Positions 1 through 57,495 of a DNA stretch of 64,000 bases are shown piece after piece. This DNA is from Candidatus Omnitrophota bacterium (GTDB lineage: Bacteria > Omnitrophota > Gorgyraeia > Zapsychrales > Zapsychraceae), in NCBI GenBank assembly GCA_020429915.1, contig JAGQKV010000002.1, positions 61 through 64,060 on the forward strand, written 5' to 3'. A program made the position numbers and the translations under genes. The notes below the pieces were generated by a model. The model searched no databases. It was given only the letters and a program-made list of their open reading frames with translations, and was not told the origin of the DNA. Positions within the stretch are counted from its first letter, which is position 1. Each line of letters opens with the position of its first letter.

Positions 1-1208
1 ACGGTCGGACCTGACGGAGCATTGGGCCCTGTGGGGACACCGGGGCCTGTCGGGTCGCTGGGACCTGTGGGATCGCCGGGAGCAGCCGGGACACCTGGAC
101 CGGTTGGAGCATTGGGTCCGGTGGGTAATTCAGTAGTTTGCGGAGCGTCGGGTCCGAACGGAGCGCCGGGACCCGTGGGTCCGTTGGGATCTACCGGAGC
201 GCCTGGCCCTGCCGGGGCGTTAGGCCCTGTCGGGTCGCTCGGACCTGTCGGATCACCGGGAACTGCGGGTCCAGACGGAGCGCCGGGACCTGTCGGGTCA
301 CTCGGGCCGGTCGGATCGCCGGGAACGGTCGGACCTGACGGAGCATTGGGCCCTGTGGGGGCACCGGGGCCAGTCGGGTCGCTGGGACCTGTGGGATCGC
401 CGGGAGCAGCCGGGGCACCTGGACCGGTTGGAGCATTGGGTCCGGTGGGTAATTCAGTAGTTTGCGGAGCGTCGGGTCCGAACGGAGCGCCGGGACCCGT
501 GGGTCCGTTGGGATCTACCGGAGCGCCGGGTCCTGCCGGGGCGTTAGGCCCTGTCGGGTCGCTCGGACCTGTCGGATCACCAGGAGTGCCGGGAACGGCC
601 GGACCTGACGGAGCGTCGGGTCCTGTGGGAGCGCCGGGACCTGTCGGGTCACTCGGGCCGGTCGGATCGCCGGGAACGGTCGGACCTGACGGAGCATTGG
701 GCCCTGTGGGGGCGCCGGGGCCTGTCGGGTCGCTCGGACCTGTCGGATCACCAGGAGTGCCGGGAACGGCCGGACCTGACGGAGCGTTAGGTCCTGAAGG
801 TGCGCCGGGACCGGTCGGGTCACTCGGACCTGTCGGATCACCAGGAGTACCGGGAACAGCCGGACCAGACGGAGCGTTCGGGCCAGACGGCGAGCCGGGA
901 CCTGTCGGGTCACTCGGCCCGGTCGGATCACCCGGTGTGCCGGGCATGGCCGGATCATTGGGCGTACCCGGTCCCGTCGGATCAGCGGGATCTTGCGGTA
1001 AGCCCGGCAATTCAGGCAGTCCCGGCGGGGCCGGCATCAGAACGATATCAGGATCACCCGGTCCTGTCGGCGGGGTTATTCCCCCCGGTCCCGACGGCGG
1101 CGTCGGTGGTGTCGGCGCGGCGACTTGCGCCAGCGCCGGTACGGCTGCGCCGAGTTGAACCGTGATGATTACGCTTGCAAGAATGGAAAAAAATCTTTTG
1201 AAGGTCAT
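1..1208 (-). CDS. Secreted Pro/Thr/Gly-rich triplet-repeat protein, 5' part only (runs off left window edge). Alternative reading: + strand collagen-like Gly-X-Y ORF 22..1158
   Basis: Minus-strand ATG at 1208..1206 with GGAG 7 nt upstream. Encodes MTFKRFFSILASVIITVQLGAAVPALA|QV, a classic signal peptide (basic n-region, hydrophobic core, AxA site), followed by (X-X-Pro)n repeats open to the window edge. The opposite strand is simultaneously open as Gly-X-Y because GGN codons pair with CCN codons sharing wobble positions. Strand call rests on the start/RBS/signal peptide only. Confidence 0.45.
   Translation of the reverse strand, partial: MTFKRFFSILASVIITVQLGAAVPALAQVAAPTPPTPPSGPGGITPPTGPGDPDIVLMPAPPGLPELPGLPQDPADPTGPGTPNDPAMPGTPGDPTGPSDPTGPGSPSGPNAPSGPAVPGTPGDPTGPSDPTGPGAPSGPNAPSGPAVPGTPGDPTGPSDPTGPGAPTGPNAPSGPTVPGDPTGPSDPTGPGAPTGPDAPSGPAVPGTPGDPTGPSDPTGPNAPAGPGAPVDPNGPTGPGAPFGPDAPQTTELPTGPNAPTGPGAPAAPGDPTGPSDPTGPGAPTGPNAPSGPTVPGDPTGPSDPTGPGAPSGPAVPGDPTGPSDPTGPNAPAGPGAPVDPNGPTGPGAPFGPDAPQTTELPTGPNAPTGPGVPAAPGDPTGPSDPTGPGVPTGPNAPSGPT
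7..1000. repeat. Tandem degenerate DNA repeats (324-bp unit at 7..330 and 331..; ~90-bp subunits at 601, 682, 772, ...) inside the triplet-repeat coding region
   Basis: Near-identical copies of ggacctgacggagcattgggccctgtggg... recur at 7, 331, 601, 682, 772. Differences between copies fall mostly on positions that are wobble in both candidate frames. Confidence 0.8.
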
Positions 1209-1412
1209 AGCAGTCTCCTGGTTAATAAAAAAATTCTTTACCATTCTATGGGCGAGCCACAATTGCGTCAATAGGACATGCTTGTACGCAGTTGCCTTTT
1301 TATGGTAATTATTTGAGATTACTATGTTTTGGAAAGATTACGGTGCGGCGGGTGGGAAAAAATACGGTCCGGCGCGGACTGATTGACCGGCGGGGCCGTG
1401 CGCGAAGAGTTA

Positions 1413-2914: not shown

Positions 2915-4048
2915 CTAACTTTTGCGAGGCTTCCACTCTTTCTTCGGTCCCTTCAACTTGGGATCGATCTCGCGGCGGGATTCCTTCGACCATTCGCAGT
3001 GATAGTTGTCGATTAATTCGTTGTCCAACTCGTCGGCCTTCAGGGACATGTTGAAGATGTGCCGGCGGATATCGTCGGACAGGCCTGTTTTCAGGTCCGC
3101 CAGCCGCACCCGGTACGAGAGGTACACCGATGATTCATAAATGGCCAGGAAGTACGGCGGGACGGGATTGGACAGCAGGTAGCGGTACAGCGGCTCGAGC
3201 CCGGTCTTGGGGAGTTTCACCAGCGGACAGGTCGCCAGCAGGTACTTTTCTTTGTAGACGAAGATCCGGATTAAGGCGCTGCCCTGGTAAAATTCCCAGA
3301 ATTCGTACCCCGCGCGGGCGACCACCGGATCGATTTCGCGTACCCCCAGGGCCCCTTCCACGAATTCGGCCAGCGAACTCAGGGTCGCTTCCTGAAAAAG
3401 GTTTTTACCATCGAGTTTGTGTCCGCAGTGCGAACAATAGTCGGATTCTTCGACGATGAGTTGACTGCAGGACGGACACTTGACCGAAAACTGTTCCGGC
3501 CGGTTGGCACGGAATTCCTCCAGCTCCTTTACCAGAGCCTCGCTGGGCAGCGCGTAACCCATATTTTCGGCCTGCGCGATCTTGCAGGTGGTGACCCCGA
3601 TAATCCGACCTTCCGCGTCGAGCATGGGGCCGCCGCTGTTGCCCGGATTGATGGCCGCGTCCGTCTGGACATAATTGTTCTCGCCGATGTTCTGGCTCGG
3701 TGAAGAGACGATCCCCTCCGTCACGGTAAACGGCCGGCCGAAGGGAAAGCCCATCACATACACCTTGGCGCGCATCGTCAGTTCGTCGGAATTGACAAAC
3801 GCCGGGTCGGTCTGCCCGAGGTCCTCCTTGCATTCGAGAAAGGCCAGGTCGAGCGCCGGATTGATTTGCAGGACCCGGACCTTGTACTTGTCCTTGTCTT
3901 GCGTCTCCACCGCGACAAACCGGTTGCCGGCCACCACGTGATGGTTGGTGACGACCAGATTGTCCGACGGCAGATAGAACCCGGAGCCGGTCCCGCTGGA
4001 GGTGGTGACCTTGACGACGGCTGAGGAGTATTGGTCGATATCACTCAT
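2915..4048 (-). CDS. Trypsin-like (S1) serine peptidase with C-terminal zinc ribbon and YbjN-like domain
   Basis: TDAAINPGNSGGPM catalytic serine motif and HHV His region. CPSCS...CSHCGH zinc ribbon. C-terminal YLLATCPLVKLP...YFLAIYESSVYLSYRVRLADL resembles YbjN / T3SS-chaperone-like domains. Confidence 0.75.
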   Translation of the reverse strand: MSDIDQYSSAVVKVTTSSGTGSGFYLPSDNLVVTNHHVVAGNRFVAVETQDKDKYKVRVLQINPALDLAFLECKEDLGQTDPAFVNSDELTMRAKVYVMGFPFGRPFTVTEGIVSSPSQNIGENNYVQTDAAINPGNSGGPMLDAEGRIIGVTTCKIAQAENMGYALPSEALVKELEEFRANRPEQFSVKCPSCSQLIVEESDYCSHCGHKLDGKNLFQEATLSSLAEFVEGALGVREIDPVVARAGYEFWEFYQGSALIRIFVYKEKYLLATCPLVKLPKTGLEPLYRYLLSNPVPPYFLAIYESSVYLSYRVRLADLKTGLSDDIRRHIFNMSLKADELDNELIDNYHCEWSKESRREIDPKLKGPKKEWKPRKS

Positions 4049-4054
4049 GTGGTT

Positions 4055-4213
4055 GTATCCTGTGTGGAATATCGAATATCGAATATCGAAGGAGCATCGA
4101 ATTACCGAATATCGAATTCTGAAACTGTTTGTTTCGAGAATTCGGAGATTCGAACTTCGGGCTTCCTTCGATATTCGGATTTCGGGTTTCGATATTGATC
4201 ATCACGTTATCCG
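4055..4213. repeat. Intergenic repeat element, TTCGAATATCGAA family (copy A)
   Basis: (AATATCG)x3 then cgaattaccgaatatcgaattc ... ccttcgatattcggatttcgggtttcgatattg. Shares submotifs with copies at 9262..9440, 51447..51545 and 57306..57492. Confidence 0.7.
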
Positions 4214-5326
4214 TTACTTTGTCATAAGCATGACCTTCTGCACGAACCCATGCAGGTTGCGTGCCGCTTCGGGCCATTTTTTGCCGCTGACTTTTTTGAG
4301 CGCGTGGTTGAGCGCTTCTTCCACTTTGACCGGAGGCGAATACCGGTACAGCAAATTGTAAATGCCGAACGCCAGGTAGTAAAAACCGCTGACGAAGCGG
4401 TCATGGGCGATTTCCTTTTCGGCATTGGTGTAGTCGTTGCGCAGGATTTCCTGGACACGGGCCAGGGCCACGGGCGTGCGCACCGAAATGAAAAAGCTGG
4501 GAATATACATCGCCTTCTGAAAGCGGGCCTCGTCGTATTCTGAGCGCAGTTTGTGCAGGGCGTCCATGATCTCGGTCAGCTTTTCCGCGTCACTGAGCTG
4601 GCCCTTCTGCAGGCCGGAGCTGATCTGCTTCTCGATATCGGACCGGAGTTTGCCCTGCGGCGCCAGCACGCAATCGAGTTTCATCAGCGTCATGACCGCT
4701 GCGTCGAGCGCCACCGCGAAGCTGCGTTCGTCGCGCAGGTAGTCGATATAGGCGTCGAGTTCCTTAATGATATCATTGAAGTCTTTCCAGAGAGTCTTCT
4801 GCTGGCCTTTGGAAAAATGGCGTACCTCCGGCTCGCGAAAGCGTTCGGCGCCCAGCTCCTCGACAAAGATGTCGTCGTAGTAGTCGGCCTGGATACAGAT
4901 TTCATGGAAGACGTCATAAATCTTGGACGGCTCGCAGGCCTCCATCGGGGTCTGATAATAAAAGAAAAGCTCGTTGTTATGCAACTGGATCTGGCTGGTG
5001 GTGAGGACCGAAAAATTGATCTCGTTGATCTGCCGCAGCAGCGGGGTCATGTTGCCGTCGCCCAGCCGGACAAACGGAGCGATGATCTGGATGTATCCTT
5101 CACGGATCGCGACGTTGAGCACGGTCGACCCATGCGGGATGGCGATCTGGTCCGAATCGCGGAAGCGTTTCAGCGCGTAAGGATCGCAATAGTTGATGAT
5201 GTTGTGCAGGGTATCCCTCAGGCGGCCCTTTTCATAATACTCCACGGCCTTGTTCCAGTATTTGGCGTCATTCTTGGCCGAAAGGTTCCCCAGGATCGGT
5301 TTGTAATATTTGGGTGCGACTTTCAT
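4214..5326 (-). CDS. Hypothetical protein (370 aa)
   Basis: Long ORF with protein-like composition and no recognisable motif. Sits between two copies of the intergenic repeat family. Confidence 0.5.
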   Translation of the reverse strand: MKVAPKYYKPILGNLSAKNDAKYWNKAVEYYEKGRLRDTLHNIINYCDPYALKRFRDSDQIAIPHGSTVLNVAIREGYIQIIAPFVRLGDGNMTPLLRQINEINFSVLTTSQIQLHNNELFFYYQTPMEACEPSKIYDVFHEICIQADYYDDIFVEELGAERFREPEVRHFSKGQQKTLWKDFNDIIKELDAYIDYLRDERSFAVALDAAVMTLMKLDCVLAPQGKLRSDIEKQISSGLQKGQLSDAEKLTEIMDALHKLRSEYDEARFQKAMYIPSFFISVRTPVALARVQEILRNDYTNAEKEIAHDRFVSGFYYLAFGIYNLLYRYSPPVKVEEALNHALKKVSGKKWPEAARNLHGFVQKVMLMTK

Positions 5327-8768: not shown

Positions 8769-9233
8769 TTACATGCCGCGGAATAGAACCCGGCCGTACG
8801 GCAGGAACGGCCACGGGATGGAGACCATGACGAGCAGGAAGACTACCAGGACGGTGATCGCCATGCGTTTGAAGGCGGCCTTGGCGTCCGGGGCCTTTTT
8901 GACCAGGACATTGCCCACATGCAGCAGGATCACGCCCAGGACCATGGCGAAGATGTGCTCCACCGCCACGTAACGCAGCTGGGTGTCGGACATCGTCATC
9001 TTCATCCCCGCTTCGAAAGCGGCCTTGACGTTGGGACTGATAAAGTAGAGATACAGCCCCAGCATGACCTGCAGGTCGTAGACGATCATGGTGATCAGCC
9101 GGGTGGTGTGAAATTTCTTGTCGGCCTCCCCTCCGCCCAGCCAGCCGCGGAAGGATTTGATCAGGAGCAGGACCATAGTGAGCAGGACCAGCCAGCGGCC
9201 CCAACTGTGGACGAAGAGTGCGAAACTGTACAT
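8769..9233 (-). CDS. Integral membrane protein (4 predicted TM helices)
   Basis: Four hydrophobic stretches. Conserved His in TM1 (FALFVHSWGRWLVLL) and TM3 (VAVEHIFAMVLGVILLHVGN) suggests a possible heme or metal ligand. Confidence 0.55.
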   Translation of the reverse strand: MYSFALFVHSWGRWLVLLTMVLLLIKSFRGWLGGGEADKKFHTTRLITMIVYDLQVMLGLYLYFISPNVKAAFEAGMKMTMSDTQLRYVAVEHIFAMVLGVILLHVGNVLVKKAPDAKAAFKRMAITVLVVFLLVMVSIPWPFLPYGRVLFRGM

Positions 9234-9261
9234 GTTTTTACCTCAAGTAGTGTTTATAAAT

Positions 9262-9440
9262 TTCGAATATCGAATCCTCGAATGTTCGAGGGAAATCCGA
9301 ATCTTCGAAGTGCCGGATGAAATGACTGAAATCCCTTCGCTTGCTGAATTACGGTAAAACTATGGGGCCGTTTCGGTGATTTGGGAATTCGGTCATTCGA
9401 TATTCCTTCGAATATTCGAAGATTCGGATTTGGAGATTTA
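9262..9440. repeat. Intergenic repeat element, TTCGAATATCGAA family (copy B, two blocks)
   Basis: tttcgaatatcgaatcctcgaatgttcgagggaaatccgaatcttcgaag, and ggtcattcgatattccttcgaatattcgaagattcggatttggag nearly identical to the block at 57445..57480. Confidence 0.7.
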
Positions 9441-9448
9441 TTCTCCTG

Positions 9449-10474
9449 TCACTGTGCCGGCGTCGATCTCAGTGAGCCGAGCGGTCCCAAGGCAGCGTCG
9501 CCGATTTGCATGCTGTCGGCGAATTCTTCCAGCAGCCGGAAATGTTCTTCGTATTCGTCGACGGTCGTCATTAGCTGAAGTGAAAGGATCTGCCCGTCGA
9601 AGTAAAACTGGTACCATACGCTGCGCAATCCCTTGGGCATTTCCAGCCACATCAACGCGGCGTCATACCCGTGCAGTTGCTTTCTTTCCGGACCGCGTAC
9701 CGTGACTTCAGGGTTCTCCGTGACGGCCAGGGCGATCAGCCGGGCGTAGTCGACCGCCGACTCGACGTTCCGTGGCGGCGTGTCCACGGTAATGCCGATG
9801 CTCGGGACCGGCTGGGCTTCATTCTTGGTGTATAACAACAGTGCGCGCGAACCGTTATTAAGGAAGATGTTCTGCCGGCCGATCCATCCCGGCACCGCCT
9901 GCCAGCACATTTGCCGGCCGCTGCCGATCAGGACGCAGTCCGCCGTTCCGCCGCTGCCGATGCCGCGCATGCCGGCGCCTCCGGTGCGCACGGCATGGAT
10001 GAACTCGTTGGCCGTATGAAAGCCGTACCAGGACATCTGTTCGGGGAGTTCTCCGTTCCATAAGCTGTCCTTGCTGGCTGTCAGCATTTGGACAAAGAAA
10101 CCCGCCGGTTCGGCAGCGGGGTCCTGCTCAAGTGCCAAATACGCGTGTTCCATTGATCTCTTGATACGGCCGGCGGCATAATTGCCGAACATCGCGGCCT
10201 GGCGCGCCCGCAGGGATTCAGGTGATTCAGGGCTGAGCCTCATAACCTTGTCCGCGTACTCTTCGCAGGGCTCGACTTCGCCCACACTGCAGTGCAGATT
10301 GGCCAGCTCCAGATTCAATTTGACGCTGAGCGGATCATCATTCAGTAATTCCTGAATAACGGCCACACGGCCGCTGATATCCGTACCGACCGGCGCCAGA
10401 TACGTCTGTTGGGCGTGACCGGTGGCGGCTGTAAACAGCAGGATCAGGGTTCCCAGGACGAGACGAACCTTCAT
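9449..10474 (-). CDS. Secreted hypothetical protein (signal peptide)
   Basis: MKVRLVLGTLILLFTAATGHA|QQ signal peptide. 341 aa, no recognisable motif. Confidence 0.6.
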   Translation of the reverse strand: MKVRLVLGTLILLFTAATGHAQQTYLAPVGTDISGRVAVIQELLNDDPLSVKLNLELANLHCSVGEVEPCEEYADKVMRLSPESPESLRARQAAMFGNYAAGRIKRSMEHAYLALEQDPAAEPAGFFVQMLTASKDSLWNGELPEQMSWYGFHTANEFIHAVRTGGAGMRGIGSGGTADCVLIGSGRQMCWQAVPGWIGRQNIFLNNGSRALLLYTKNEAQPVPSIGITVDTPPRNVESAVDYARLIALAVTENPEVTVRGPERKQLHGYDAALMWLEMPKGLRSVWYQFYFDGQILSLQLMTTVDEYEEHFRLLEEFADSMQIGDAALGPLGSLRSTPAQ

Positions 10475-10883
10475 GGGAGGGGTCCTTTCATTAACCAGGC
10501 GCGGATGGAATTGCTCATAGACTGGCTATTATACCCGATGATCGGCGGTATTTTGATCCATTTTTTTGATTTGGTCCGGACCGCGACCCCGCTCCCCTTT
10601 TCCCAGGTCACCTCTTCGATGTCCCGGCGACGGATAAGACGACGTCCGCTCAGACGCGATACGTCCAAGGTGTCGATGCCGAGCAGGACACGCGTGCGGA
10701 TGCTCTCGGTCAACGCGTAAGCCGTGAGGATGGCGAAAAACACCAGGATCCCCAGGGCGGTATTTGACGCGTTGGCATTGATCGCGATTACGATGAGGAT
10801 TGTGAACACGATGCTGGCGGCAAAGATTGCCGCGACAAAGCCGAGCGGATGACGGAATTCTTTGATTTCGGACGGGTTCATCA
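10471..10883 (-). CDS. Small membrane protein with C-terminal bacterial PH-like domain
   Basis: Start taken at the internal ATG (MNPSEIKEF...), which overlaps the upstream gene stop (cTGATGaac, translational coupling). Two TM helices then a soluble C-terminus. The track N-terminal extension is low-complexity and rejected. Confidence 0.45.
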
Positions 10884-14552: not shown

Positions 14553-14576
14553 AGCTTATTCCGTGATATGTGCTAC

Positions 14577-14681
14577 GTGATAAGTGATACGAACAGTGAA
14601 GCGCCTGCTTTACGTCAACGGGCCTTCCTTTTGTGTGGCCTGCCGGACGATATGTCGTAAACTGTTCGTATCACTTATCAC
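14577..14681. promoter_or_regulatory. Perfect 21-bp inverted repeat (gtgataagtgatacgaacagt / actgttcgtatcacttatcac) separated by 63 bp, between valS and the upstream membrane-protein gene
   Basis: Arm 1 at 14577..14597, arm 2 at 14661..14681, exact reverse complements. Arm 2 overlaps the stop codon of gene 14678..16264. A related imperfect IR with GTGAT(C/A)AGTGAT motifs flanks the other end of that gene. Confidence 0.6.
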
Positions 14682-16264
14682 TTATCCCGTATCACGCCTT
14701 TCATTTTAGGTTCTCGTTCAATCGCTGTCTTATACGCGAATTTACCGATCAGTTCCCGGAATTCCGGCTTTTCGCGGACGTAGATATAGGTTTGATCGTC
14801 GATGTACACCAGATGCCAGTACGGCGACGCGGTCAGTGCCACGGTCAGCGGCGCGCGCTGGGCCAGCCAGCGGCTGAGGACGACCACATCAATGTGGTAG
14901 CTGCGCAGCGTCGCATCCCAGCCGGGACGGCCGGCGATCAGTTCGAAATAGATTTCATAGAAGGCGTCGCCCATGGTATCGAGACGGTTCTGGATGAAGA
15001 CCTTGTTGTCCGGGTACAGCTGATACGCCAGAAAGCCCCCCCAGTCCATGTCGTTGAGGATGTTGCCGCCGACGCGGTTGGTCTTCATGAATCGGACGGC
15101 GTCGAGTGGTAGCAGGTTCCGGTTGGCTCCGAATCCGAATTGATACGTACTTTGCGGTCCGCCTTTGGCCACGAGAAACACGCAGACCAGGGCCAGCGCC
15201 AGACCTGCCGTGATGCCGCGTTGTCCCAGAATCCGGCTGATACCGGCCGGCCATTCCCGGTCCCGGACGAGCAGCGACAGGTAGTGGATGATCACCGGCG
15301 CGCTGAAAACGGCGAAGATCGGGATCAGGTTGACGACCTTAAGTGCCAGGGCCGCGCCGATGACAAACACCAGCATGTCGAAGACGTCCACCCGTCGGAT
15401 CATGCCGAAGATTACCGTCACATAAAAGGCCAGCGCGCACCAGAAAACCGGCAGCATCGTGTAGCCGAAGACGCGCGGCGGAAAATATTCGGGGACCCGG
15501 TATTTGATGGCCAGGTACATACTTTCCAGCGGATATGTCCAGAAGCCGAATCCCGCCGGGGTCAGACAACAAGCCGCCGCAGCGAGGGCTGTGATCAGCG
15601 CCAAATGCCTCAGCATCGGACCGTCGACCGGATATTTAAGGTTGCCGTCGAACAGGTACGGCCAGGTGCGTGCCAATATCGCAGCCGCCAGATACGTCAG
15701 CAAAAGAATAAATCCGAAAATACTGCCGAAGTGCAGATTCGACCAGAGCGCCATCAGCGGGAGCACGTGCCACAGCCGGGTGATGCGTCCGTTTTTGTAG
15801 GCATGCAGCCGCGTGCCCAGGTACATCAACAGCAGGTATGTGATGACCTGCGGCCCGACGGTCAACCGGAAATGCGACAGAAAGACCGTCACCAGCGCGA
15901 TCCAGAAGATGATCAGCGGCGAGGCTTCCCGTTCGCGCATATGCTGCCACAATAAACCGATCATGGCCATGACCAGCGCGCTTTTGAGCATGATCACCCC
16001 GGTCAAGCCGCCCAGCGTCTGGGCCGCCCCGAAAAGGACCTCGCTCAGCCATTGCGGATTCGTCACCGGTAATCCCGCCTTGGTGATCGTAATCCGGTCC
16101 ACCATGGACAGCGACGGCTCCCGCAGCCACAAGTGACCGTTCAACAGCGATCCCCACAGCGTGAAGGTCTTGATTTTAAAGGTCGTCAGCAGACCTGTGC
16201 AGGCCAACAAGGTGATGAGCAAGTAGGTATGCGGGTTTTGGGGGAGTGGGATGTGGCGTTTCAT
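14678..16264 (-). CDS. Polytopic membrane protein, GT-C-like glycosyltransferase candidate
   Basis: About 12 TM helices in the N-terminal two thirds, then a soluble C-terminal domain. Architecture resembles ArnT/PMT/YfhO-type lipid-linked glycosyltransferases. Confidence 0.55.
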   Translation of the reverse strand: MKRHIPLPQNPHTYLLITLLACTGLLTTFKIKTFTLWGSLLNGHLWLREPSLSMVDRITITKAGLPVTNPQWLSEVLFGAAQTLGGLTGVIMLKSALVMAMIGLLWQHMREREASPLIIFWIALVTVFLSHFRLTVGPQVITYLLLMYLGTRLHAYKNGRITRLWHVLPLMALWSNLHFGSIFGFILLLTYLAAAILARTWPYLFDGNLKYPVDGPMLRHLALITALAAAACCLTPAGFGFWTYPLESMYLAIKYRVPEYFPPRVFGYTMLPVFWCALAFYVTVIFGMIRRVDVFDMLVFVIGAALALKVVNLIPIFAVFSAPVIIHYLSLLVRDREWPAGISRILGQRGITAGLALALVCVFLVAKGGPQSTYQFGFGANRNLLPLDAVRFMKTNRVGGNILNDMDWGGFLAYQLYPDNKVFIQNRLDTMGDAFYEIYFELIAGRPGWDATLRSYHIDVVVLSRWLAQRAPLTVALTASPYWHLVYIDDQTYIYVREKPEFRELIGKFAYKTAIEREPKMKGVIRDK

Positions 16265-16265
16265 C

Positions 16266-16365
16266 TGTGAGTGATCAGTGATCTGTGATCTGTGGCCAGG
16301 TGTGCTGTCACCCGAGAAGCAACGGGCCGGTCATTCTGATCACTTATCACCGATCACTTACTTTT
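16266..16365. promoter_or_regulatory. Imperfect inverted repeat with GTGATnnGTGAT motifs upstream of the membrane-protein gene
   Basis: tgtgagtgatcagtgatctgtgatctg ... tgatcacttatcaccgatcacttac; related to the IR at 14577..14681. Confidence 0.45.
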
Positions 16366-24196: not shown

Positions 24197-27100
24197 TTAG
24201 AGCACGCTGGCTAGGGATTGGATGAGTGACGCGCGGGCGTCGGATTCCGGTGATGTGCGGCGGGACAAACGGGCCGTGCCGGCCGGGTCCTGCTGGACGG
24301 AGCGGGTATCCCCGTCGTCATTATCTTCTAAGCCTAACAGAGGTATAAGGTTAGGCAGCGGTGTGATGTTGATGATCACAGGCTGTACGCCGCGGATCTG
24401 GAGCGGATTCACAGGCATGGCGGTGCCTTCCGGGGTGATGAACTCAAAGGCATCCCCGGTGATTTGCAGATTCATGTTTCGAGTGTCAAAGTCGATCCCC
24501 CCGGGTTCTTCGGCTGTGAGCGCTTGGTCGAGCGGAATGACACTGATGCCTGTAGCGGCCAGTTCATCCCACTTTAGATCACCCGCAATCGGATCTGGCG
24601 ACTCAACGTCCACACGGACACTGCCGTTGTGGCGCACAGTTGTGGCAACGTCTTCATCTGTGATGAGATGATGCAAATAGAACGGAACCATATCTTCAAG
24701 TAACTTACGCGCTTCATCTGCGGTCATGGCCTGATCTTTCTTGACGGCGGAGATCTCCACCCGATCGAGCGGGGCGAAGCGCACCCGGGCGATAAAGTCA
24801 CCGTCCCGCTGGTAAAGTCGCGTGGCCTCGGCGATATTCTCTTCAGTAATCCAGTCCAGCGCGCCTACATCGGCCCCGCCTTCGATCATCTTGCCCCCAA
24901 TGAGCGTAAGGACCTTGCTGCGCAGGCGGGTCTTCAGAGGAGTGACAGCGGCGTCCGGCCGGGACGTGGCGGTCATGGCCTGGTCATCCCTGTCGCGATC
25001 GCGATTACGGAAGTTTTGCCAGCGGCGGAACATGCGGTACCCCACCAAACCGGCCAGCGCGGCCGATCCCGCCACCAGCAGGATTCTCTCCGGGTCCCGC
25101 AGGATCTCATCGAGCACGGCCATGTCCGGGGTGGCGTATGACCTGCTGTCGCGGACGACCGAGGGTTCGGCCTGACGTTCGGCGGCGAGGATGGCGCCGT
25201 CCACGATGTAACCGTTGGCGTCGAACGTGACGGTTTCCTCACCGATCGGTACCGACAGATTGCTTTCGGTAGCCACCTGGATGGCCGCGATATTGCGCAT
25301 GATGTGGTCCGCCATGAAGAATTTATCCTTCTTGAAGCGCGCGACAATGGCGTCACGCTTGATCAAGTCTTCGCCGTCGGTGGCGGCATATATCTCGGCC
25401 TTGCGTTGCCCCAAGGCCTTGGCTAGCCGGACCACGGCTTCGGTGGGGGTCATGTCGTATTTCTCGGATAATTCCATGACCATGATGTTATTGCGCCGCG
25501 CGATCTGGGCAATTTCGTCGTAGAGTTCGATTTTGATTTGGTCCAGCGGATCAAGGTACTCGTAATGTTCGCCGATCTTGATGTCGGGGTGATTACTGGA
25601 GGTGATCAAGCCGTAGCCTTGTTGCTCGACGGCATAGTTATCCCAGGACAGCCGCCGGCGCAGGGAAGCAACGGTGTAACCCAGGTCGTCACCGCGATGG
25701 AACAAACGCCCGTTGAGCGGATCGACGTTCGCGCCGATGGTAATTTCTTCGATGTCGGAGGCAACCACGATACCGTTGTGGATGATCACCTGACCGGCCT
25801 CAACGCTATCTTTGTCGGTCACCAGATTTACGACTTCCGTGACTTCGGTGTTGGTCTCCGTCGGGATGACATCGCCGTCGGCGCTGCGTAACGTGATGGT
25901 GCGCAATTCACGGACGGTCAGCTGATGCTTGAGCATCGCCTCTTTGGTGGATCCTTTGACCCCGCCGAAGTTCACGCTCATCCCGCTGACCGCCAGGATG
26001 CCGGCTTCTTTGAGCTCCTGTTCCACGCCGATGAAGGCGTTATTGGACCCTTCGATGATGATAATATCTTCCATCTCCGGTTCGTCCGCGTCCGCCTTGA
26101 GGAGCGACACGCCGGACCAGCCGCGTTCCTCCAAACGGTCCAACGCGTTTCCGAGTGTCAGCGAATAACTGGACCGTGCCGGATCACTGGTCGAATCCAG
26201 CAGATCGCGAATCTTTCGACCGATAATGAGCTCGTCATCGCCTTCATATTCCGCTAAAAAGGCGTTCAGTTCCTCTATCATCTGCTCGGTCACACGGCCT
26301 TCCAGGTTGGCATTTTCCAGGGCGCGGCGGACTGAGACAGGACGCTGCTGGAGGGGCTTTTTGATAAATCCGCCCATCGCCGCCGGAACCAGGAGGTTGA
26401 TGTCGACGGCTTCCGTGTCCAGAATCTGCGCGCCTTTCAGGTGCTGCACTCCCTCCTGTTCGGGCATCCACTGCAGGACATTGCGTTCTCCCGGAGAGAT
26501 GTTGTTAAGGTCTTGCAGTTCCGCTATGGTGAATCCTTCCGGTTTATAAACCACGCCGTTAATGTCTGATATGGCGACAACTCTGATGCCTCCCCGCACC
26601 ATCTTCAGGGCGATCGATCCGCCTACATCCCCGGCACCGACAACGGCGGCGCGCTGCGTCGCGGGATGGATTCCCTTATACTCGAGAATCGTTTTGATAC
26701 TGTGCCACGTCGAATCTCCGGTGACCGCCAGTTCGACGTGGGAGATGGCGCCCACTTTGGCGGATCCGCCGGTCACGGCGCTGCCGATGATCTTGACGAT
26801 TTCATCCTTGAGCTTACGGTTGAAGACGCGCTCGACGACCACACTGCCGTTTTCCTTGCCCTTGGGCAGTTCCAGCAACAGGCGTTTGCGCATGAAGCCG
26901 ATGAGACTGTCGTCAAGGAATTTGCGGCCTGTATCGCGCTCGATTTCGGCCAACGCGCGGCCGTAACTTGACAAGGTCAAGTTGAAGATATCGACGCCGT
27001 GCGCGTGCATGGTACGCACTTCATTCATCAAGTGCATGGTATAGCGGCGGACGATACCCGCGATAATCGTTTCCTGGTTGTCGGAGGACATGCCTACGTC

Positions 27101-30100
27101 CGGCCCCCCGTCATAGACTTCCATGAGGCCGACGTCCACCATGGCCCGCGCCCAGGCGCGCAGCAAATCGTCCTTCAGTGACGTTGCGTCCTGATTCACC
27201 CCGAAGTACGTCTTGGCGCCGGCATAACCGATACCGGCCAGGACGTTCTTGGAATATTGTGAAACCGAGAGGTTGTTCAAATCTTCATACGCGCCTTTCA
27301 TGATATCGTGCGCCACTTCGTCGATATTTCGCTTTTGCGGATCGTTCGCACGGGCCACCGGCTCGGCGTAACGGATGCCCCCCTTGGTGTGATCGGCTTC
27401 GCTGAGATCGACGAGCTGGGTAATCGCGTAGAAACGGTCGGGCAGATAGATGAAGACGATTTCCTTTTTGTTTTCAAAACCGGTTAGCGGGACCCCCTTA
27501 AAACGGATGGCGATCGCCTCGCGGCTGCCGCCGCTGGTTTCTTCCCGCTTCTCCGGTTCGACCACATCAGCGCTGGTGGCGGTGATATTCTTGACGGCGC
27601 GTTCGTACAGGATGGTCAACCACTGCGTCTCCGATCCCGCGAGCAGTTCCTCCAGGGCCTCTTCTTCGCCTTGCGGATTGTAGAGGTAACGGATCATGGC
27701 GGCGGCGATCTGCGGATGCGCCACGAGCTCCTCGATGGCGGCGATGCCGTCGAAGTATTCTCCCCGGTTATGCTTCACTTCGTAGTGCGAGAGTATTTCC
27801 AGGAACGTAGCGGCGCCCAGGAGTATATCCCGGCGGCGCGGTTCCACGTCGGCCAGGACCTGATCGAGTCCGGCACGGTTGGTTTTCTGATCGCGTTGAC
27901 TGTTGAGGTAACGCAGCGCCTCGGGACGTGTCTTGCGCTTTTGCGTATCGGCAGCGCCCAGCACCTGTTCCTCAATAGATGCCCCGGTTGCGACGGGAGT
28001 CGTCATGGCCGCGTCACTGGTTTTGAGTCGTTTGTCGAGTCCGATAAAGTTTTGAGCCTGTAAAGCGCGGCTCTCCTGTTCACGCAGACTGGCCTCTGCC
28101 ATACGGGCAGTTTTCAGGCTGGAGTCGAAGGACCCGGACAGCGCCTCACGCATGCGCACCGCGGCCAAAACGTCGTCGGAATCGGTTGCCGTCCTTTGTT
28201 CCAAGCGTCCCTCGGCGTTAAACACGTAGGTGTCCTTGCCTACCTTGATGGACAAGTCGCTGGCGGAAACCAGACGTTTGATGGCGATCTTGCGGGCGAC
28301 GTTCAGCGGGAAGAAGAATCCGTCTGTCTCGAATTTATCCACAATCCGTTGAATAGCTTCTTCGACCCGTTCGTCGTCCGAAGTGTCCAGTTCGCGTTTC
28401 TTGGCGGCGATCATCTTGGTAACCTTGCGAACGGCCTGTGACGGCATCATCTTCAGCTCCAACTTCTCTGCGTCGGCGCCATTGCGGGCCAATTCCATGA
28501 CCATCGTGTTCATGCGTTTGGCGATCCCCTTGATATCCTGGTACGCGGTGACACGGATTTCCTGGACCGGATCAATAAACACGGCTGAGTTGCCCTGCCT
28601 GAGGTCGGGGTGATTGCTGGCGATGATTTTCCCCTGGCTGTCGAGTTTCACCACGAAGTTGTCCCAAATCAGGGTCTTCACCTGATCGCGATGACGGTAA
28701 GGTAGTTGAATGCCTTGACTCGTCAGGCGCCCCTCGAACAAATCCAGGTTTGTCCCGGCGAGGATATCGGCGACCGTGGAGTGTATGACGCGGCCGTCCT
28801 GCATGACAATTTCCCCGAGGACTTCACTGCCCGTGTAATTGGTGACCGTGAAGCGATCATTGACGCGAATGGCCGGGCTGGTGACCACATCGGTCCCTTC
28901 CGAACGAACGATGATCCGTTGCAGCTGTTCGGTGGTGAACCGATGTTTAATGTAGTCCTCCAAATAAGAGCCGTAGGCCCCGCCGAATCCGATGCTGGTG
29001 GCGCTGAACGCCAGGATTCCCTTGCGATGCAGTGTCCGTTCGTAACCGTTGATCGAGTTGAATCCGCCTTCGATATAGATCAGCGGATCGCGGTCCGGAT
29101 CGTCATCCAAGCTGCGCAGCCGGTCGATGGCGCCTTCATCCAGCTTATGTCCCGGTGCCATCGAAATCAGGATGTCCAGGTCGATCATGTCTTTGTCGCC
29201 CAGCGACCCCAAGGGAAGGTGGCGGACGCCTGTGCTTTCCGCCGGCATCCATTTCAGGACGTTTCTTTCGTTCAGGGCGATATTGTCCAGCCGTTGCAAG
29301 TCCCGGACGCTGAAGCCTTCCTTTTTATAGACCGTTCCGTTGATGTCTTCGATCGCCACAACCTGGTACCCCATGCGGGTGAGCATGAGCGCCAGCGATC
29401 CGCCGGTCGTGGCCCCGCGGATACCGATCTTGCGGCTGCGCAAATCGCGGTCCGGCAGGTATTCGTCGATCGCCTCGATGCTCATGGCCGCACTGAATGC
29501 TGTCAGCGACCATTCCTTCAGCGCGTTGAACTCGGTGTCGGTCAGACGTCCCGTGGCCGCCGATCCGATCGTCCGCGCGATCTCCGACTCGAGTCGCGAA
29601 TTGAAGAGTTTGACCAGCGACGTCCCTCCGTTTTGCTGACCCAGATGCATGGAGGCGACCACCCGTTGCCGTAACGAATCCATCAGCGGGTCATGCAGGA
29701 AACGCCTCGGTGTTTCGGCGCCGTCCTCGAGTTCAGCCAGCAACATCCCGTACTGCGATGTGGACTTGATTTTGGACAGGTCCTCTCCGATGGACGGAAT
29801 GGTTTTCATCAGTTCCAATTCATTCCGCAGGTGATCCCGATAACGGGTGCCGATCGCCTGGGCCAGCGTATCTTGATCCTTGGCCGTCATACCGGATTCG
29901 GTCCCGATCACATAACGGGAGGCCACTCCGGCATCCACGTAAGATCTCGCCAGTGATTTGAGCAGGACGGTTTTGATATTCTTTGAGTCCGGGAAGACCG
30001 ACATTACCGTTTTGGCCCCGGAGAACGGTGTTTGGGTAATGGTGTTGCGGGCGAACTTCGAACGGGAAATCAGGTCAACCTCGGCAAAGGTGTTTTGGAA

Positions 30101-33100
30101 ATGATCGTAGGCGACCTGGTCTTCCGGTATCAGCCGTCCTCTTTCATCCCGGCGCTTGAGGACCTTGTAACGGATGCCGCCCTGTGCCAGGGATCCGGTC
30201 CCGTTCGGCCGGTCAACAATTTGTGTGAGGGCATAGAAGTATCCGGGACGGTACGAGAAGACGTAGTCCACCACCCGCGGGTCGTCGGTCAGGGCGCGGC
30301 CGCTGATGACCAGGGTCACGGGATCATAATCCTTGCGCATGGCCGTGTAGATATTGGAAGATTTAACATGACGGACCGCGTTGTTAAAGACTTTGTTCAG
30401 CCAGGCCGTACCGGAATGTTCGATCATCTCCTGGACGTTTTCCGCAGAGGTCTCCCCGGCGAAGTAACGGTCGAAGGCGGCCACGATCTCAGGATTATCC
30501 GCCAACTCCTGGCGGGCGGCGATGCCGTCGAATTCAAAATCATCCGCGGCAGCGGCGTAAAGTTCCAGGAATTGAGTCGCCGCCAACAGGGCGTCTTTAA
30601 CCGCGGGGCTGATCTGTTCATCCGGGATGGCATTGAGACCCGAGCGGTAGTTCCGCTGGCGACGGATGTCGGACAGGAACACCTTTTCCGGCTGGCTCAA
30701 TTCGCGGCTGGCGCGGATCATGTCCGGGATATCCAAATCCGCCGCGGCAAACTCTTCTCTTAAGTATTCATGAGTATATTCGGTGGCGGCCTCCTGATCC
30801 GCGGTTTGCCGGCCGATCCGCGAGATGAGTTCGTGGGTCAGTAGTAATCGCCGCAGCTTGTCGACTTTGTCGCTGAAAAAGTACGGGTGAAGTATCACTA
30901 CTTTCTTCCCGACGCTCGAATGGGCCGCGAACGGATTTCCGTTTTCGGCCACGGGCAGCTTGTAGACGATGTCGTCTCTGTTTTGAGTGGTGGTGTCGGT
31001 CGTGATGACGATACGGAAGTCCCGCAACCGTTCGAGTACGACCGGATCGGTTTCGGGGCGTTTCAGGAGGCGCTCGATTTCGTCAATGAGGACCCCCGCG
31101 TATTCCGCATAGCGACCGTTATCGTCCGTATCAATCTGGACTTCCCCGTCGATGATCTGGACCCGCATTTCGACGGGCGACTCGAGTTTCAAAACCTGTT
31201 CGGTTAAGGGCACCGTTAAGTCGGCGAACGTGGCCATATCGCTGTGGTTGTCGATCCGGCCGAGGACAGCGCTGTCCTGTGCGACCGGCAGGCCCCCGCT
31301 AAGGGCGGCCTTGCGCAGCGGCACTTTTCCTTTTTCCAGAGCGTCAAGATATTCCACGGCGCGCGTCAGGGTTTCGTCGATATGGATCATTAATTCCGTT
31401 AAGCGGTCCGCATCCGCGGGCAGTAATCCCCGTAGCAAAAAGGCGCGGTCCTGGATCTGGTGATAGTCAACGACCAGGTCTTCGACGGTGCGTTGGGCGG
31501 CCTGCGGAGCATACGGTCCGAACTTGAAGGCGTCGAGAAAACGCTGATTCACGAAGCTGTACAAAGTCTGGGCCTCGCGCCAATTCGCCGGTTCTCCCTG
31601 GTTTGCCGCGGCAATGGCGGTCCAGTGTTCCAGGTCCTGTTGTTTGACCTGGATCATCCGGCGCAGTTCTTCGGCCGGCGCTGTGGACACCCAGCGGATC
31701 ATTTCCAAGGTGGCGTCGGCCCCGTCCTTCAGGCTTTTCAGGCGCTGGATCAGGGTTTGCGGGACTTCGTTGCCAACGGCGATCCGTCGGTTGATGTCAC
31801 CCGAAATTTCCGCCAGCTGCCGGTCAAAGTCGATTTCAAATTTCCGGAGGGCCGACTCCCGGACCTCCTGCGCCCGGGCATTCGAAAAGAAATCCAGGGG
31901 ATCGTACATCAGGAAGTAAATCACAGCGCCCAGGCCCGTCAGGCCCAGACCGAGGCGGAACACGTCGCGCCGGTTCAGCATGGCCATATCCTTGGAGACC
32001 GAATAGTCGGTGAAGGTGATCTCGCGGATCACCTCCGCATCAAAATAGCCGGCTCCCGTAAAGATGGCGGACGGTTGCAGATCATCGTCCACCCGTTCGA
32101 AAATTGTTCGTACGGGATTTTGCGGATCGTCCCGGGTCACGATCTCCAGCGGAGTTCCCCGGTTGATCAGTCGGCCGTCCGGGCGGGTGCCGCGCTGGAA
32201 ATTGACAAAGTCGGCCAGCGACGGAAAGCGCATCTTGACGGCAATGACCATACCGTTGACCGTGACGTATTCCCTGACGTACGGCGTGTACAGGAAGTTG
32301 AACCGGATCTCGGCGAGAGCGGCGGCGATCTCTTCGGTGTCCATGTCCGTACTCGGACCGACGCGTTCGGCAAAGAGACGCCAGTCTATTGAGGAACTGA
32401 TGATATGAAACAGGCTGCGCATCAGACCGATCGGATAGTCCAGGGTGTATCCGTCCGGAGAGGCGTTGAGTGAGAGTACGACGTCCCTGGTCAGGGACTC
32501 CGGCAGCATGGCCACAAAGGTATGTTCGGTCTCAAAGATATCGCGGGTAATCGCCGCGGGATCGTAGGGCTGCCGGTGACGTGTTAATGTTTGGCGCAAG
32601 GCGTTTGAGATTTGAGCCCGGATGCGTTGGTCCAGCTGCATGTCGTCGGCCAGGACCTCCCAGCGGATAACAGCTTGTTCGATACTCAGGGCCTCGCCCA
32701 GGGCCGTGGCGACGACCTCTTCCTCGACCCCCAGACGTTCGGCGATGGTGTCCACCGCATCAATGAGCACGGCTGCGTCGGCCTCCACATAGGGTAACGT
32801 GAAGAGTTCGGCCACGTTCTGATCGAGGTAGCCCAGTGTCTTCCCGGTTGCGTCTTCGGAGACAATGGCAACGATCCGTCCGGCAAAATCCGTTTCGTCC
32901 GCGAAAAACCACGTCAGTAATTTATCGCTGACAGCGGCCCGGTCGCTCAGGTCCGTCCGTTCGGGAAAGAAGCGGCTTAAATATTCCAGGACGCGCTGGG
33001 AATCGGTAACCGTTGTCGGCTGGAGTTCTTCCAGTGGAACCGGCGTGTTTTGGGCCAGTGCCGTTTCGATTTGTTCGCGTAGCCGGCGTAAACGCATGCG

Positions 33101-39475: not shown

Positions 39476-39720
39476 GTGCTCATTCCCCCTTCCGCAGTTG
39501 GTGTGCGGCAAGTCAAAGGCATAGACGGTATCATTAAGCGGTCCCGGACAGTAATCCGGACCGGAAAAAGAACAAAAAAAATCCCGCTTGGAAATAGACG
39601 GAATCACTAAAGTTGCTCAAATTGTGAGACGAGATTGGGGAATATGGATAGTGGGTGTTGCGTATATATAAGAATATATTAGTGTCACTAGTTTGTCAAA
39701 TATTTATACGGGATTCAACC

Positions 39721-44571: not shown

Positions 44572-44770
44572 AATATGACACCATTATACAGATTGGGGGT
44601 GAAAGTGAAAGGCTTAATTTAGCGTTAAGCGGTGAGCGGCTAGAGACCAGAAAGTGGGTGGGGATTAGAAATGAGTTCGAGAAGCGGTTGTTTCCGGATA
44701 ATATCCTCCGACGCGTCTCACTATCGACTCTCCGCTGATCTCTGTCTTCACTCTAGCCGCCAAACGCTGT

Positions 44771-44813
44771 CCGCTGAAAATACGAAGGGGGCTCCGGTTT
44801 ATCCGGAGCCCCC
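44771..44813 (-). terminator. Rho-independent terminator after tRNA-Gly
   Basis: GGGGGCTCCGG-ttta-TCCGGAGCCCCC perfect 11-bp stem followed on the minus strand by TTCGTATTTTCAG. Confidence 0.75.
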
Positions 44814-44824
44814 TTGCGCAAGAG

Positions 44825-44895
44825 AGCGGGCGATGAGAATCGAACTCACGTATCAAGCTTGGAAGGCTTGTGTTCTGCCACTGAACTACGCCCGC
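44825..44895 (-). tRNA. tRNA-Gly (anticodon TCC)
   Basis: Minus strand reads GCGGGCGTAGTTCAGTGGCAGAACACAAGCCTTCCAAGCTTGATACGTGAGTTCGATTCTCATCGCCCGCT. Anticodon stem CAAGC/GCTTG with loop CTTCCAA. Confidence 0.85.
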
Positions 44896-45023
44896 AAAGG
44901 CAGTCTGTAGGGGTTAGCGATTAGCGGTTAGAAAGTGAATAGTTCATAGGGATTAGTCAAATACCATCCGCTAACCGCTATGCCCTTCTAACCGCTAGAC
45001 GCTAACCGCTAAACACTGATTTA

Positions 45024-45105
45024 TGGGCAGTGGAGGATTCGAACCCCCGAAGGGAAACCCAACAGATTTACAGTCTGTCCTCGTTGACCGCTTGAGTAAC
45101 TGCCC
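45024..45105 (-). tRNA. tRNA-Tyr (anticodon GTA), long variable arm
   Basis: Minus strand reads GGGCAGTTACTCAAGCGGTCAACGAGGACAGACTGTAAATCTGTTGGGTTTCCCTTCGGGGGTTCGAATCCTCCACTGCCCA. Anticodon loop CTGTAAA. Confidence 0.85.
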
Positions 45106-45393
45106 AGTGATCTCGTGCATATTATGTGGAAATGGCACCAAAGGTGTATGCGTCTATTCGTGTAAGTGTGTATGCGTTTTCAGGTAGCGTAAAACATGTA
45201 GGTCGGAGTCAATCATTTTTGAGATAGGGCAACCTGCAATCCAGTTCCAATATGCAATGATCTGATCGGTGTATGAATGTAGGGGCTTGTGCGAAGATTC
45301 ATACCTTGCCTACGCACGGCATGAGGACGCATATACCCATACATTCATACACAGAAATGATGGCAAGCCAATAAAACAATCTTGCCGCAAGAA

Positions 45394-45466
45394 AGCTGGC
45401 GAGAGGCCTCGAACCCCCGACCTGCTGATTACAAGTCAGCTGCTCTACCAACTGAGCTACGCCAGC
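45394..45466 (-). tRNA. tRNA-Thr (anticodon TGT)
   Basis: Minus strand reads GCTGGCGTAGCTCAGTTGGTAGAGCAGCTGACTTGTAATCAGCAGGTCGGGGGTTCGAGGCCTCTCGCCAGCT. Anticodon loop CTTGTAA. Confidence 0.85.
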
Positions 45467-45722
45467 GAAAACTTCAAAAATTTATATCCAGAAAGTGTTC
45501 GCTGTGCCCGGCGTAGCCCAACGCGATAGCCATTGGGCGAAGACGGGCCAGCCGTGCTTTCTGGAAAAAGTCATAAGTCAAAGAAAACCCGCCCGGACGC
45601 ATTGTCCGCGGCGGTGGGTTATCACGAGAATAACACATATTTCGTGTGAAACGAGCATTATTTATAGCAGAATATCCCGGCAGTGTAAAGACAGTTTTTG
45701 GCGAATTGGGACGCCGCAGCGG

Positions 45723-51444: not shown

Positions 51445-51446
51445 TT

Positions 51447-51545
51447 TTTGAATATCGAAATCCGAATTTCGAATCATCTCGTCTGCGAATTGTCAAACGG
51501 ACCATGTGGTCCAGTTCGGTCATCAGGTCCTTCGATATTCGGATT
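51447..51545. repeat. Intergenic repeat element, TTCGAATATCGAA family (copy C)
   Basis: tttttgaatatcgaaatccgaatttcgaatc ... ccttcgatattcggatttcgc, placed between the pfk stop and the terminator. Confidence 0.65.
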
Positions 51546-51556
51546 TCGCAATACAA

Positions 51557-51596
51557 TAAAAAAGGCTGACATGCGTAATGCACGTCAGCCTTTTTT
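51557..51596. terminator. Bidirectional Rho-independent terminator
   Basis: AAAAAAA-GGCTGAC...GTCAGCC-TTTTTT. Serves pfk (+) and the mgtE/small-protein transcript (-). Confidence 0.7.
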
Positions 51597-56852: not shown

Positions 56853-56870
56853 GGCATTCTCCTTGATTAA

Positions 56871-57275: not shown

Positions 57276-57305
57276 GCCGTGCCTCCATTTAATCGGTATT
57301 GACGG

Positions 57306-57492
57306 AATATCTTCGAATATCGAAGGAAATTCCAATTTCCTAATTACCGAATGTTCGAAACTCGGGATAAGGGTGAAACTATATTTACAAGACTACATCT
57401 TTTCGACGATGGGCGCCGGTGGCGTTTCGAAAATTCGAGGATTTGGTCATTCGATATTCCTTCGATATTCGAAGATTCGATATTCGAAATTC
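57306..57492. repeat. Intergenic repeat element, TTCGAATATCGAA family (copy D)
   Basis: cttcgaatatcgaaggaaattcc..taattaccgaatgttcgaaac...ggtcattcgatattccttcgatattcgaagattcgatattcgaaattcc. Near-identical to the block at 9391..9437 and related to 4060..4130. Confidence 0.7.
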
Positions 57493-57495
57493 CAC

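Follow-up and report, generated by a model that had tools for sequence, protein, structure and literature searches.

Small noncoding elements that are dispersed in bacterial genomes, such as the Correia, ERIC, and RPE elements, have long terminal inverted repeats, give hairpin transcripts, and are present or absent at orthologous sites, and the RPEs of Rickettsia insert in frame in genes. The REP, BIME, and REPIN sequences are intergenic palindromes that are mobilised by RAYT transposases and often occur as inverted pairs in operon transcripts, roles in mRNA stability having been proposed for them.

The GGGAATC heptamers of Xanthomonas, as described in the passages of Rehm et al. 2015 that deal with them, form about 70-75 facing opposite-strand pairs per genome, which are able to form stem-loops (PMC4692102). 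According to the same passages, about 90% of these repeats are intergenic, mostly between genes of the same direction and closer to the stop of the upstream ORF than to the next start, the array length differs between related species, and the G-rich unit has been studied for G-quadruplex formation; heptanucleotide repeats are also stated there to be over-represented in many bacterial genomes for an unknown reason (PMC4692102). TAACTGA heptamers are found in Beggiatoaceae, Cyanobacteria, and Bacteroidetes, with 169 direct sets and 1 inverted, and have been proposed as binding sites for a translational regulator (MacGregor 2015, PMC4679880). REPs, in the passages that define them, are 20-40 nt long and carry a GTAG or CGTC head (PMC3733652, PMC2817692).

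In the window, which is the whole 64-kb stretch of DNA that was analysed, four intergenic gaps hold copies of one short self-complementary repeat with CGAATAT-like 7-base units, and this repeat is best interpreted as a dispersed element resembling MITEs or foldback elements, of the type with inverted heptanucleotide pairs that Xanthomonas and cyanobacteria are known to carry. The DNA belongs to an uncultured Candidatus Omnitrophota bacterium: its LeuRS has its best match, at 73% identity, in an Omnitrophota MAG, and proteins closely similar to those of the window carry the names Omnitrophica or Omnitrophota. Three features of MITEs were found, namely, terminal inverted repeats, small noncoding dispersed homologous copies, and presence or absence at orthologous sites. 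The repeat resembles the Correia, ERIC, and RPE elements in its size, inverted repeats, and presence/absence pattern, and a look-alike of it lies in frame inside thiC in the manner of the Rickettsia RPEs, but, unlike with them, no clean target-site duplication was found at one of its sites (site A), where the flanks are diverged, and no parent insertion sequence was found in the window and ~15 kb beyond. Its arms consist of short units in tandem, an uncommon design for a bacterial MITE, and eukaryotic foldback elements offer a closer parallel in this respect. The features of the Xanthomonas- and STRR-type repeats were found as well, namely, tandem degenerate 7-nt units in facing opposite-strand arrays that are intergenic and nearer to the upstream stop, and, as with the Xanthomonas repeats, the facing pairs are inverted and vary in length (PMC4692102). 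However, the CGAATAT units have no G-runs, the distinct units of the arms follow one another in a fixed order, with a conserved core, which gives them a more element-like character than a plain repeat array has, and look-alikes occur across phyla, whereas cross-phylum relatives are not reported in the passages on the Xanthomonas repeats (PMC4692102). STRR and TAACTGA repeats are likewise intergenic 7-nt tandem repeats in distant phyla, often close to gene starts, for which a mechanism of spread is not known (PMC4679880), but the elements described here are inverted pairs with a common core, and the cyanobacterial STRR and TAACTGA repeats are looser relatives than the Xanthomonas repeats.

An earlier note on this DNA had suggested a MITE/REP-like element. 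This stands with regard to homologous, noncoding copies that have long inverted arms and are present or absent at orthologous sites, but not with regard to a strict REP or REPIN: the arms are 50-70 nt long, end in GGAAT(A/T)T, and lack the GTAG/CGTC head that the defining passages give for REPs, and no RAYT (Y1 transposase) gene was found among the window proteins with Pfam matches. An integron attC site was also rejected, as there were no RYYYAAC ... GTTRRRY cores at the ends of the elements and the neighbours are housekeeping genes with no cassette array. Full-text searches for CGAAT-type heptamer strings returned unrelated papers only, searches on repeats in Omnitrophota found nothing relevant, and Rfam gave no match; the CGAAT-type family thus appears to have no description in these sources, which is not proof of novelty.

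Four homologous foldback copies

The sequence TTCGAATATCGAA, searched with up to two mismatches, had 13 matches in the window compared with 2.0 expected, a count reached in 0 of 100 shuffles, and 12 of the 13 were inside the four loci. The 14-mer TCCTTCGATATTCG occurred five times in the 64 kb, every time in the four loci. Furthermore, a profile of all eight arms was constructed and was rebuilt with one locus left out each time, and these leave-one-locus-out profiles recovered the two arms of the omitted locus at 16-48 bits, whereas 20 Markov-shuffled windows, to which the full eight-arm profile and not the leave-one-out profiles was applied, reached 10.6 bits at most. Therefore, the four loci are homologous copies and not products of chance. 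Fortuitous similarity of AT-rich, low-complexity intergenic DNA would fit with the low GC content of the loci (0.40-0.41, compared with ~0.56 for the window) and their internal repetitiveness, but this explanation, which retains practically no probability, is already refuted by these motif counts and profile scores, together with the finding that the other intergenic regions examined in the window had no match to the arm profile. The arm profile search found no further copies in the 64-kb window and ~15 kb beyond its two ends, so that about 79 kb of this genome contains 4 copies, each 110-190 bp long, all of them intergenic and noncoding. A link to restriction sites by TCGA avoidance was not indicated, TCGA being not avoided outside the elements (O/E 1.33).

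The earlier note had thus correctly described the four loci as sharing sequence beyond random similarity, and their alignment was far above that of shuffles; it was also right that they are AT-richer than the genome and that the block at 9391..9437 reappears at 57445..57480, where 36 of 37 positions are identical apart from one 1-nt indel. The contexts that it had named were confirmed to be upstream of the genes for the trypsin-like protease, a 154-aa membrane protein, and SRAP, and directly past the pfk stop. What it missed was that every locus is one long imperfect inverted repeat. Each is a foldback of 110-190 bp with two inverted arms of 50-70 nt, which consist of degenerate 7-8 nt units reading ..CGAATAT.. 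on the left and ..ATATTCG.. on the right, with a core of CGAAGG...CCTTCGATATTCG. In an inverted-repeat search, the arms were 48-70 nt long and 71-81% complementary, and the centre between them, of 4-60 nt, was different in each copy. When placed in a common orientation, the eight arms aligned at 56-80% identity, all to one consensus, which for the right arm is GTTTCGA-GAATTCG-GNGATTCG-GTCATTCG-ATATTCC-TTCGATATTCG-AAGATTCG-ATATTCG-AAATTCC; the third unit of this order, between GAATTCG and GTCATTCG, is also written G.GATTCG. The spacing between nearest-neighbour TTCG/CGAA motifs was most often 7 (15 cases) or 8 (12 cases), and Tandem Repeats Finder detected an array of period 7 with 3.4 copies and a 100% match at 4067-4090, with weaker 7-8 nt arrays in the other three copies. 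The palindromic submotifs from which the earlier note took the blocks to be built are indeed present, but as a by-product of the 7-8 nt tandem units being oppositely oriented on the two arms.

Element A (4062..4200; arms 4062-4128 and 4132-4200, with a 4-nt tip) carries the (GAATATC)x3.4 array at 4067-4090 and fills the 165-nt gap from the stop of the gene at 4214-5326(-) to the start of the trypsin-like protease gene at 2915-4048(-). Its RNA was predicted to fold almost end to end, with a minimum free energy (MFE) of -55.1 kcal/mol and a z of -5.8, and the z was -5.7 when it was folded as single-stranded DNA. Element B (9256..9440; arms 9256-9316 and 9372-9440, with a unique centre of ~55 nt) is located between the stop of the gene at 9449-10474(-) and the start of the gene at 8769-9233(-). 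Its main stem is formed by the pairing of 9294-9313 with 9415-9431, it holds the perfect palindrome TTCGAATATTCGAA at 9407-9420, and its RNA MFE is -61.9 (z -5.2).

Element C (51445..51556; arms 51445-51492 and 51506-51556) is a shorter, degraded copy, with arms of 48 nt that are 71% complementary and score 31.7-32.5 bits. It begins 1 nt past the pfk stop codon (51444), and immediately after it comes a distinct terminator outside the family (51558..51596), which is of the canonical bidirectional intrinsic type with a 17-bp stem, an A-run, and a T-run, is common to pfk and the convergent mgtE operon, and is the sole strong terminator call near the elements. The RNA fold of -62.5 kcal/mol (z -7.3) at this locus is that of a fragment including the adjacent terminator; the value for the element alone is -38.0. 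Element D (57303..57494; arms 57303-57362 and 57423-57494, with a unique centre of ~60 nt) lies between the stop of a GNAT gene (57496) and the start of the SRAP gene (57275). Its arms, of 53 nt with 81% complementarity and about 60-62 nt between them, include a right arm near-identical to that of element B, and its RNA MFE is -67.2 (z -4.1). As for the SRAP gene itself, its call is 134 aa long and a zinc-ribbon ORF of 176 aa comes after it (56322-57275), whereas the SRAP gene of three relatives (L215-L217) has 219-220 aa, so that SRAP may be truncated or rearranged in this genome.

All four loci folded when the RNA folding proposed in the earlier note was carried out (z -4.1 to -7.3), the elements alone having predicted folds of -38 to -67 kcal/mol. 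Elements A, B, and D lie 2-17 nt from the upstream stop codon on one side and 18-30 nt from the start of the next gene on the other, and the ribosome-binding sites (AGGA, GAGGT, and GGAGG) are therefore outside the stems. The identity of these three elements as intrinsic (Rho-independent) terminators was rejected, the terminator scan having given no U-tract after the stem and no terminator-like call at any of them; over the promoter and terminator scans, the overall counts were at the shuffle level. A search of the whole window against Rfam 15 at the gathering score detected tRNAs only, and one at E up to 5 with the elements and 15 related loci gave chance-level hairpin matches only. For annotation, these loci are to be regarded as repeats and not as promoters or small RNA genes.

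Filled and empty sites among relatives

This species and its ~94% relative carry the element at sites A, C, and D, which in sister species are empty or different. At site A, the gap of 165 nt is found in the window and in the ~94% relative (L083-85), and it is reduced to 2 nt in L086 (87% protein identity) and 5 nt in L087 (80%), in which the upstream protein is homologous up to its last residues. No clean target-site duplication was found in the filled/empty alignment of this site, where the flanks are diverged (80-87% protein identity). Element A differs between the window and L083 by five substitutions, being 97% identical compared with about 94% overall DNA identity of the aligned region. 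The substitutions in L083, which include two parallel T-to-A changes in adjacent units, are non-compensatory, and the predicted stability is -49.2 kcal/mol there, compared with -55.1 in the window. The intergenic region at 2434-2546 is another fast-changing gap, unalignable with L083-85 and 112 nt long here compared with about 149 nt there.

At site C, the ~94% relative (L210) has a fuller copy, an almost perfect 60-bp hairpin with arm scores of 41.6 and 52.7 bits and a z of -10.5, relative to which the copy in the window has an 11-nt and a 19-nt indel, one on each arm, as well as a changed centre. In the sister L208, the element is absent, with only about 30 nt from the pfk stop to the terminator. 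At site D, the element is present in the ~94% relative (L215), the window having 15 additional nt on one arm and L215 12 additional nt on the other; thus, the indels between orthologous copies at sites C and D are of 11-19 nt. Those at site D delete heptamer-array sequence, the best interpretation being that each copy independently lost about two units of an originally symmetric element. The sister L216 (87% GNAT) has a different heptamer hairpin at this site, formed by GTAAGAA / TTCTTAC with a z of -4.7, and L217 (74% GNAT) has a short gap and no hairpin. In L216, GTAAGAA inverted repeats are present on both sides of the GNAT gene (9820-9978 and 10526-10636), one of them exactly at the position of element D, and the copy upstream of the GNAT gene (9820-9978) folds no better than shuffles (z -0.7). 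In L086 and L003, the orthologous gene has no element B upstream of it, and its upstream neighbour is a different one.

The arm profile had 0 matches at nhmmer E <= 1e-3 in the sister loci L086, L087, L208, L209, L211, L212, and L003 and 0 matches at E <= 1e-2 in L216 and L217. The sister-species DNA searched amounted to roughly 110 kb in all, compared with four loci in about 79 kb here, which points to a recent expansion of the family in this species lineage. The copies were gained in the lineage of this species and the ~94% relative, and the filled and empty orthologous sites in very close relatives date these gains.

Indels between close relatives, together with the parallel T-to-A changes noted above for element A, could also be accounted for by growth in place, in which local 7-nt microsatellites would expand by slippage and become palindromic via template switching, without transposition, with the similarity between loci coming from gene conversion or convergence. 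The GTAAGAA array of L216 aligns to a GTAAAAA-containing stretch in L217, and many different heptamer families are found in this clade, both of which would be in line with such growth. However, distinct units, GGTCATTCGATATTCCTTCGATATTCGAAGATTCG among them, follow one another in a long non-periodic order that is common to all eight arms and that independent expansion cannot produce, and site A in the sisters, with its gap of 2-5 nt, is without any seed sequence; growth in place is thus considered improbable.

The comparison with relatives also bears on the shared regulator-binding array that the earlier note had put forward as an alternative, in which the units would be operators of a transcription factor and the flanking genes its regulon. 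Palindromic submotifs such as TTCGAATATTCGAA do look like the operators of dimeric proteins, and three copies precede genes, but no common function links the flanking genes (protease, membrane protein, SRAP, and the 3' end of pfk), and element C lies between a stop codon and a terminator. Moreover, the motif is absent at the orthologous sites examined and all sister-species loci searched, the number of units varies between near-identical genomes, and the sole sigma-70-like match among the elements, TCGAAA-17-TATAGT in the centre of element D, is weak and at chance frequency. This proposal was therefore not upheld, and an operator role is very improbable.

Taken together, the four loci probably, by a modest preference, belong to a single family of small foldback repeats, which are noncoding and whose behaviour is that of a non-autonomous, MITE-like mobile element. 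The long inverted arms, the significant folding as both RNA and DNA, the orthologous indels, and the filled and empty sites argue for this, as do look-alikes elsewhere that have defined termini, one of them in frame inside thiC. The elements would multiply in a copy-and-paste manner, through an enzyme whose gene lies elsewhere or through recombination among the copies; a search of the 64-kb window and ~15 kb beyond found no transposase gene or other ORF with these arms on both sides. Elements A, B, and D lie between same-strand genes and are thus probably co-transcribed with them as long imperfect RNA hairpins of -38 to -67 kcal/mol, which could serve as exonuclease barriers or RNase III sites by analogy with the REP, ERIC, and Correia elements, any such effect at the RNA level being presumably secondary to selfish spread. 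On the other side, the 97% identity of element A relative to the about 94% overall is compatible with mild constraint, with which a host function of the element would likewise be compatible, and the other heptamer hairpin in the GNAT-SRAP gap of L216 may indicate that such sites favour hairpins or that hairpins arise there, as opposed to inserting at random.

Heptamer hairpins of other families

Other hairpins of like architecture with different units are present in this genome and its relatives. A GTGATAA hairpin with 36-nt arms of 89% complementarity is located at 14553-14677, directly upstream of leuS, and a hairpin of GTGGTAA/GTGATAA units occupies a like position in L003 (9901-9990), an Omnitrophota MAG with 73% LeuRS identity; L004 has a non-heptamer palindrome upstream of leuS. 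The leuS-upstream hairpin may represent a conserved structure in the leuS leader. An AGTGATC hairpin is found at 16265-16357, TTAGCGG-type hairpins at 44618-44778 and 44901-45018 around tRNA genes, and an inverted repeat for which no heptamer unit was established at 45266-45355, these further hairpins around the tRNA genes being held in the spacers between tRNA-Gly, tRNA-Tyr, and tRNA-Thr (44572-45722). L086 has GTGATCA and TTAGCGG hairpins, with a TTAGCGG-type one at 10328-10449.

The main rival to the mobile-element reading is that the host needs hairpins as cis-acting intercistronic RNA structures, acting as 3' stabilisers, RNase III/RNase E processing sites, or decoupling elements, so that selection, and not mobility, would explain their presence. 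This is unlikely, although several findings are in its favour: all four copies fold far better than shuffles, three of them lie between same-strand genes just past the stop and leave the next ribosome-binding site free, a hairpin of a different sequence family is held in the GNAT-SRAP gap of L216, the leuS-upstream hairpin is kept between species at the LeuRS identity given above, and element A is more similar to its L083 counterpart than the aligned region is overall. However, there are sisters without a hairpin, the gene pair at site A being 2-5 nt apart and L217 having none at site D, and the substitutions between orthologous copies are non-compensatory and lower the stability, as demonstrated for element A. 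The arms are merely 71-81% complementary, and a purely structural role needs no long ordered arm sequence common to unrelated loci. That different heptamer families occupy one gene boundary in sister species, as at GNAT-SRAP, is significant in this regard, and the filled and empty sites, the turnover of families, and the cross-phylum core described below make the question of a mobile element or a host-made structure testable.

A gene at 14678-16357, between a leuA-like gene and leuS, encodes a 528-aa polytopic membrane protein and is bounded on both sides by GTGATNN hairpins (16265-16357 and 14553-14677). It is absent in seven related Omnitrophota loci (L003-L008 and L010), in which its two neighbours are adjacent, and it looks like a gene inserted at a hairpin. 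Its candidacy as a transposase was rejected, the product being a polytopic membrane protein with no family match.

Look-alikes in other phyla

JGI metagenomes were scanned with an 18-base pattern from one arm, with a 2-4 nt gap, and about 118 matches were evaluated. In at least 37 of these, the 220 nt upstream contained three or more oppositely oriented CGAA[T/G] units, which is the foldback design of the elements described above. Among the matches listed, the units of these look-alikes are CGAATGA, CGAATGT, or CGAATAT, the inner boundary is CGAAGG...CCTTCG, and many have defined outer ends, which are GAACCGCAGAAT...ATTCTGCGGTTC or CAGAAT. Three of the look-alike contigs were assigned by their flanking proteins to Acidobacteria (L116), Desulfobacterales (L141), and Planctomycetes (L139). 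A CGAAT-type foldback was found in frame inside thiC at 8330-8470 of L162 and in the same gene of L164, where a variable loop is lengthened by about 40 residues, and the protein with the foldback matches the 420-position Pfam ThiC model over 487 residues. In viral contigs, the same pattern gave two matches, one of which was in a coding region and the other a lone partial arm, with no full element.

The same core and architecture thus occur in at least four phyla. It is conceivable, and can be put forward tentatively, that the CGAAT-type foldback with the CGAAGG...CCTTCGATATTCG core constitutes one undescribed class in Omnitrophota, Acidobacteriota, Desulfobacterota, and Planctomycetota, being either a horizontally spreading element with ends made of 7-nt arrays or the footprint of a shared machinery that makes and renews heptamer palindromes at intergenic sites. 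Such a shared palindrome-making machinery would also explain the different heptamer families at one gene boundary in close relatives.

In L113 (6814-7160), and also in L090, L114, L147, and L161, the foldback has a conserved centre (GGAATCGCTTCGCTCAG-like), and that of L113 lies within a 303-nt unit bounded by 44-nt direct repeats (CAAAGTTTCTTTCTCGATCAGACTGG). ATTCG-type heptamers form no foldback in L138 (5343-5738) but recur there in tandem, in units of roughly 50 nt with spacers rich in C/T, on a contig carrying a VgrG protein assigned to Fibrobacter sp.

Two further observations concern repetitive and giant coding regions of the window. The region at 1-1271 (- strand) is GC-rich (0.71), contains 9/18/90-nt tandem repeats, and encodes a Pro/Gly-rich repeat protein (PTGPGAPSGPNAPSGP...); it aligns differently in a 99.93%-identical strain (L002), and the genes called downstream are offset by 327 nt between L001 and L002. 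The stretch at 24197-39607 (- strand) is one ORF of 5136 aa, and in L087, from a sister species, one gene call reaches 9504 residues; this clade appears to be characterised by giant proteins.
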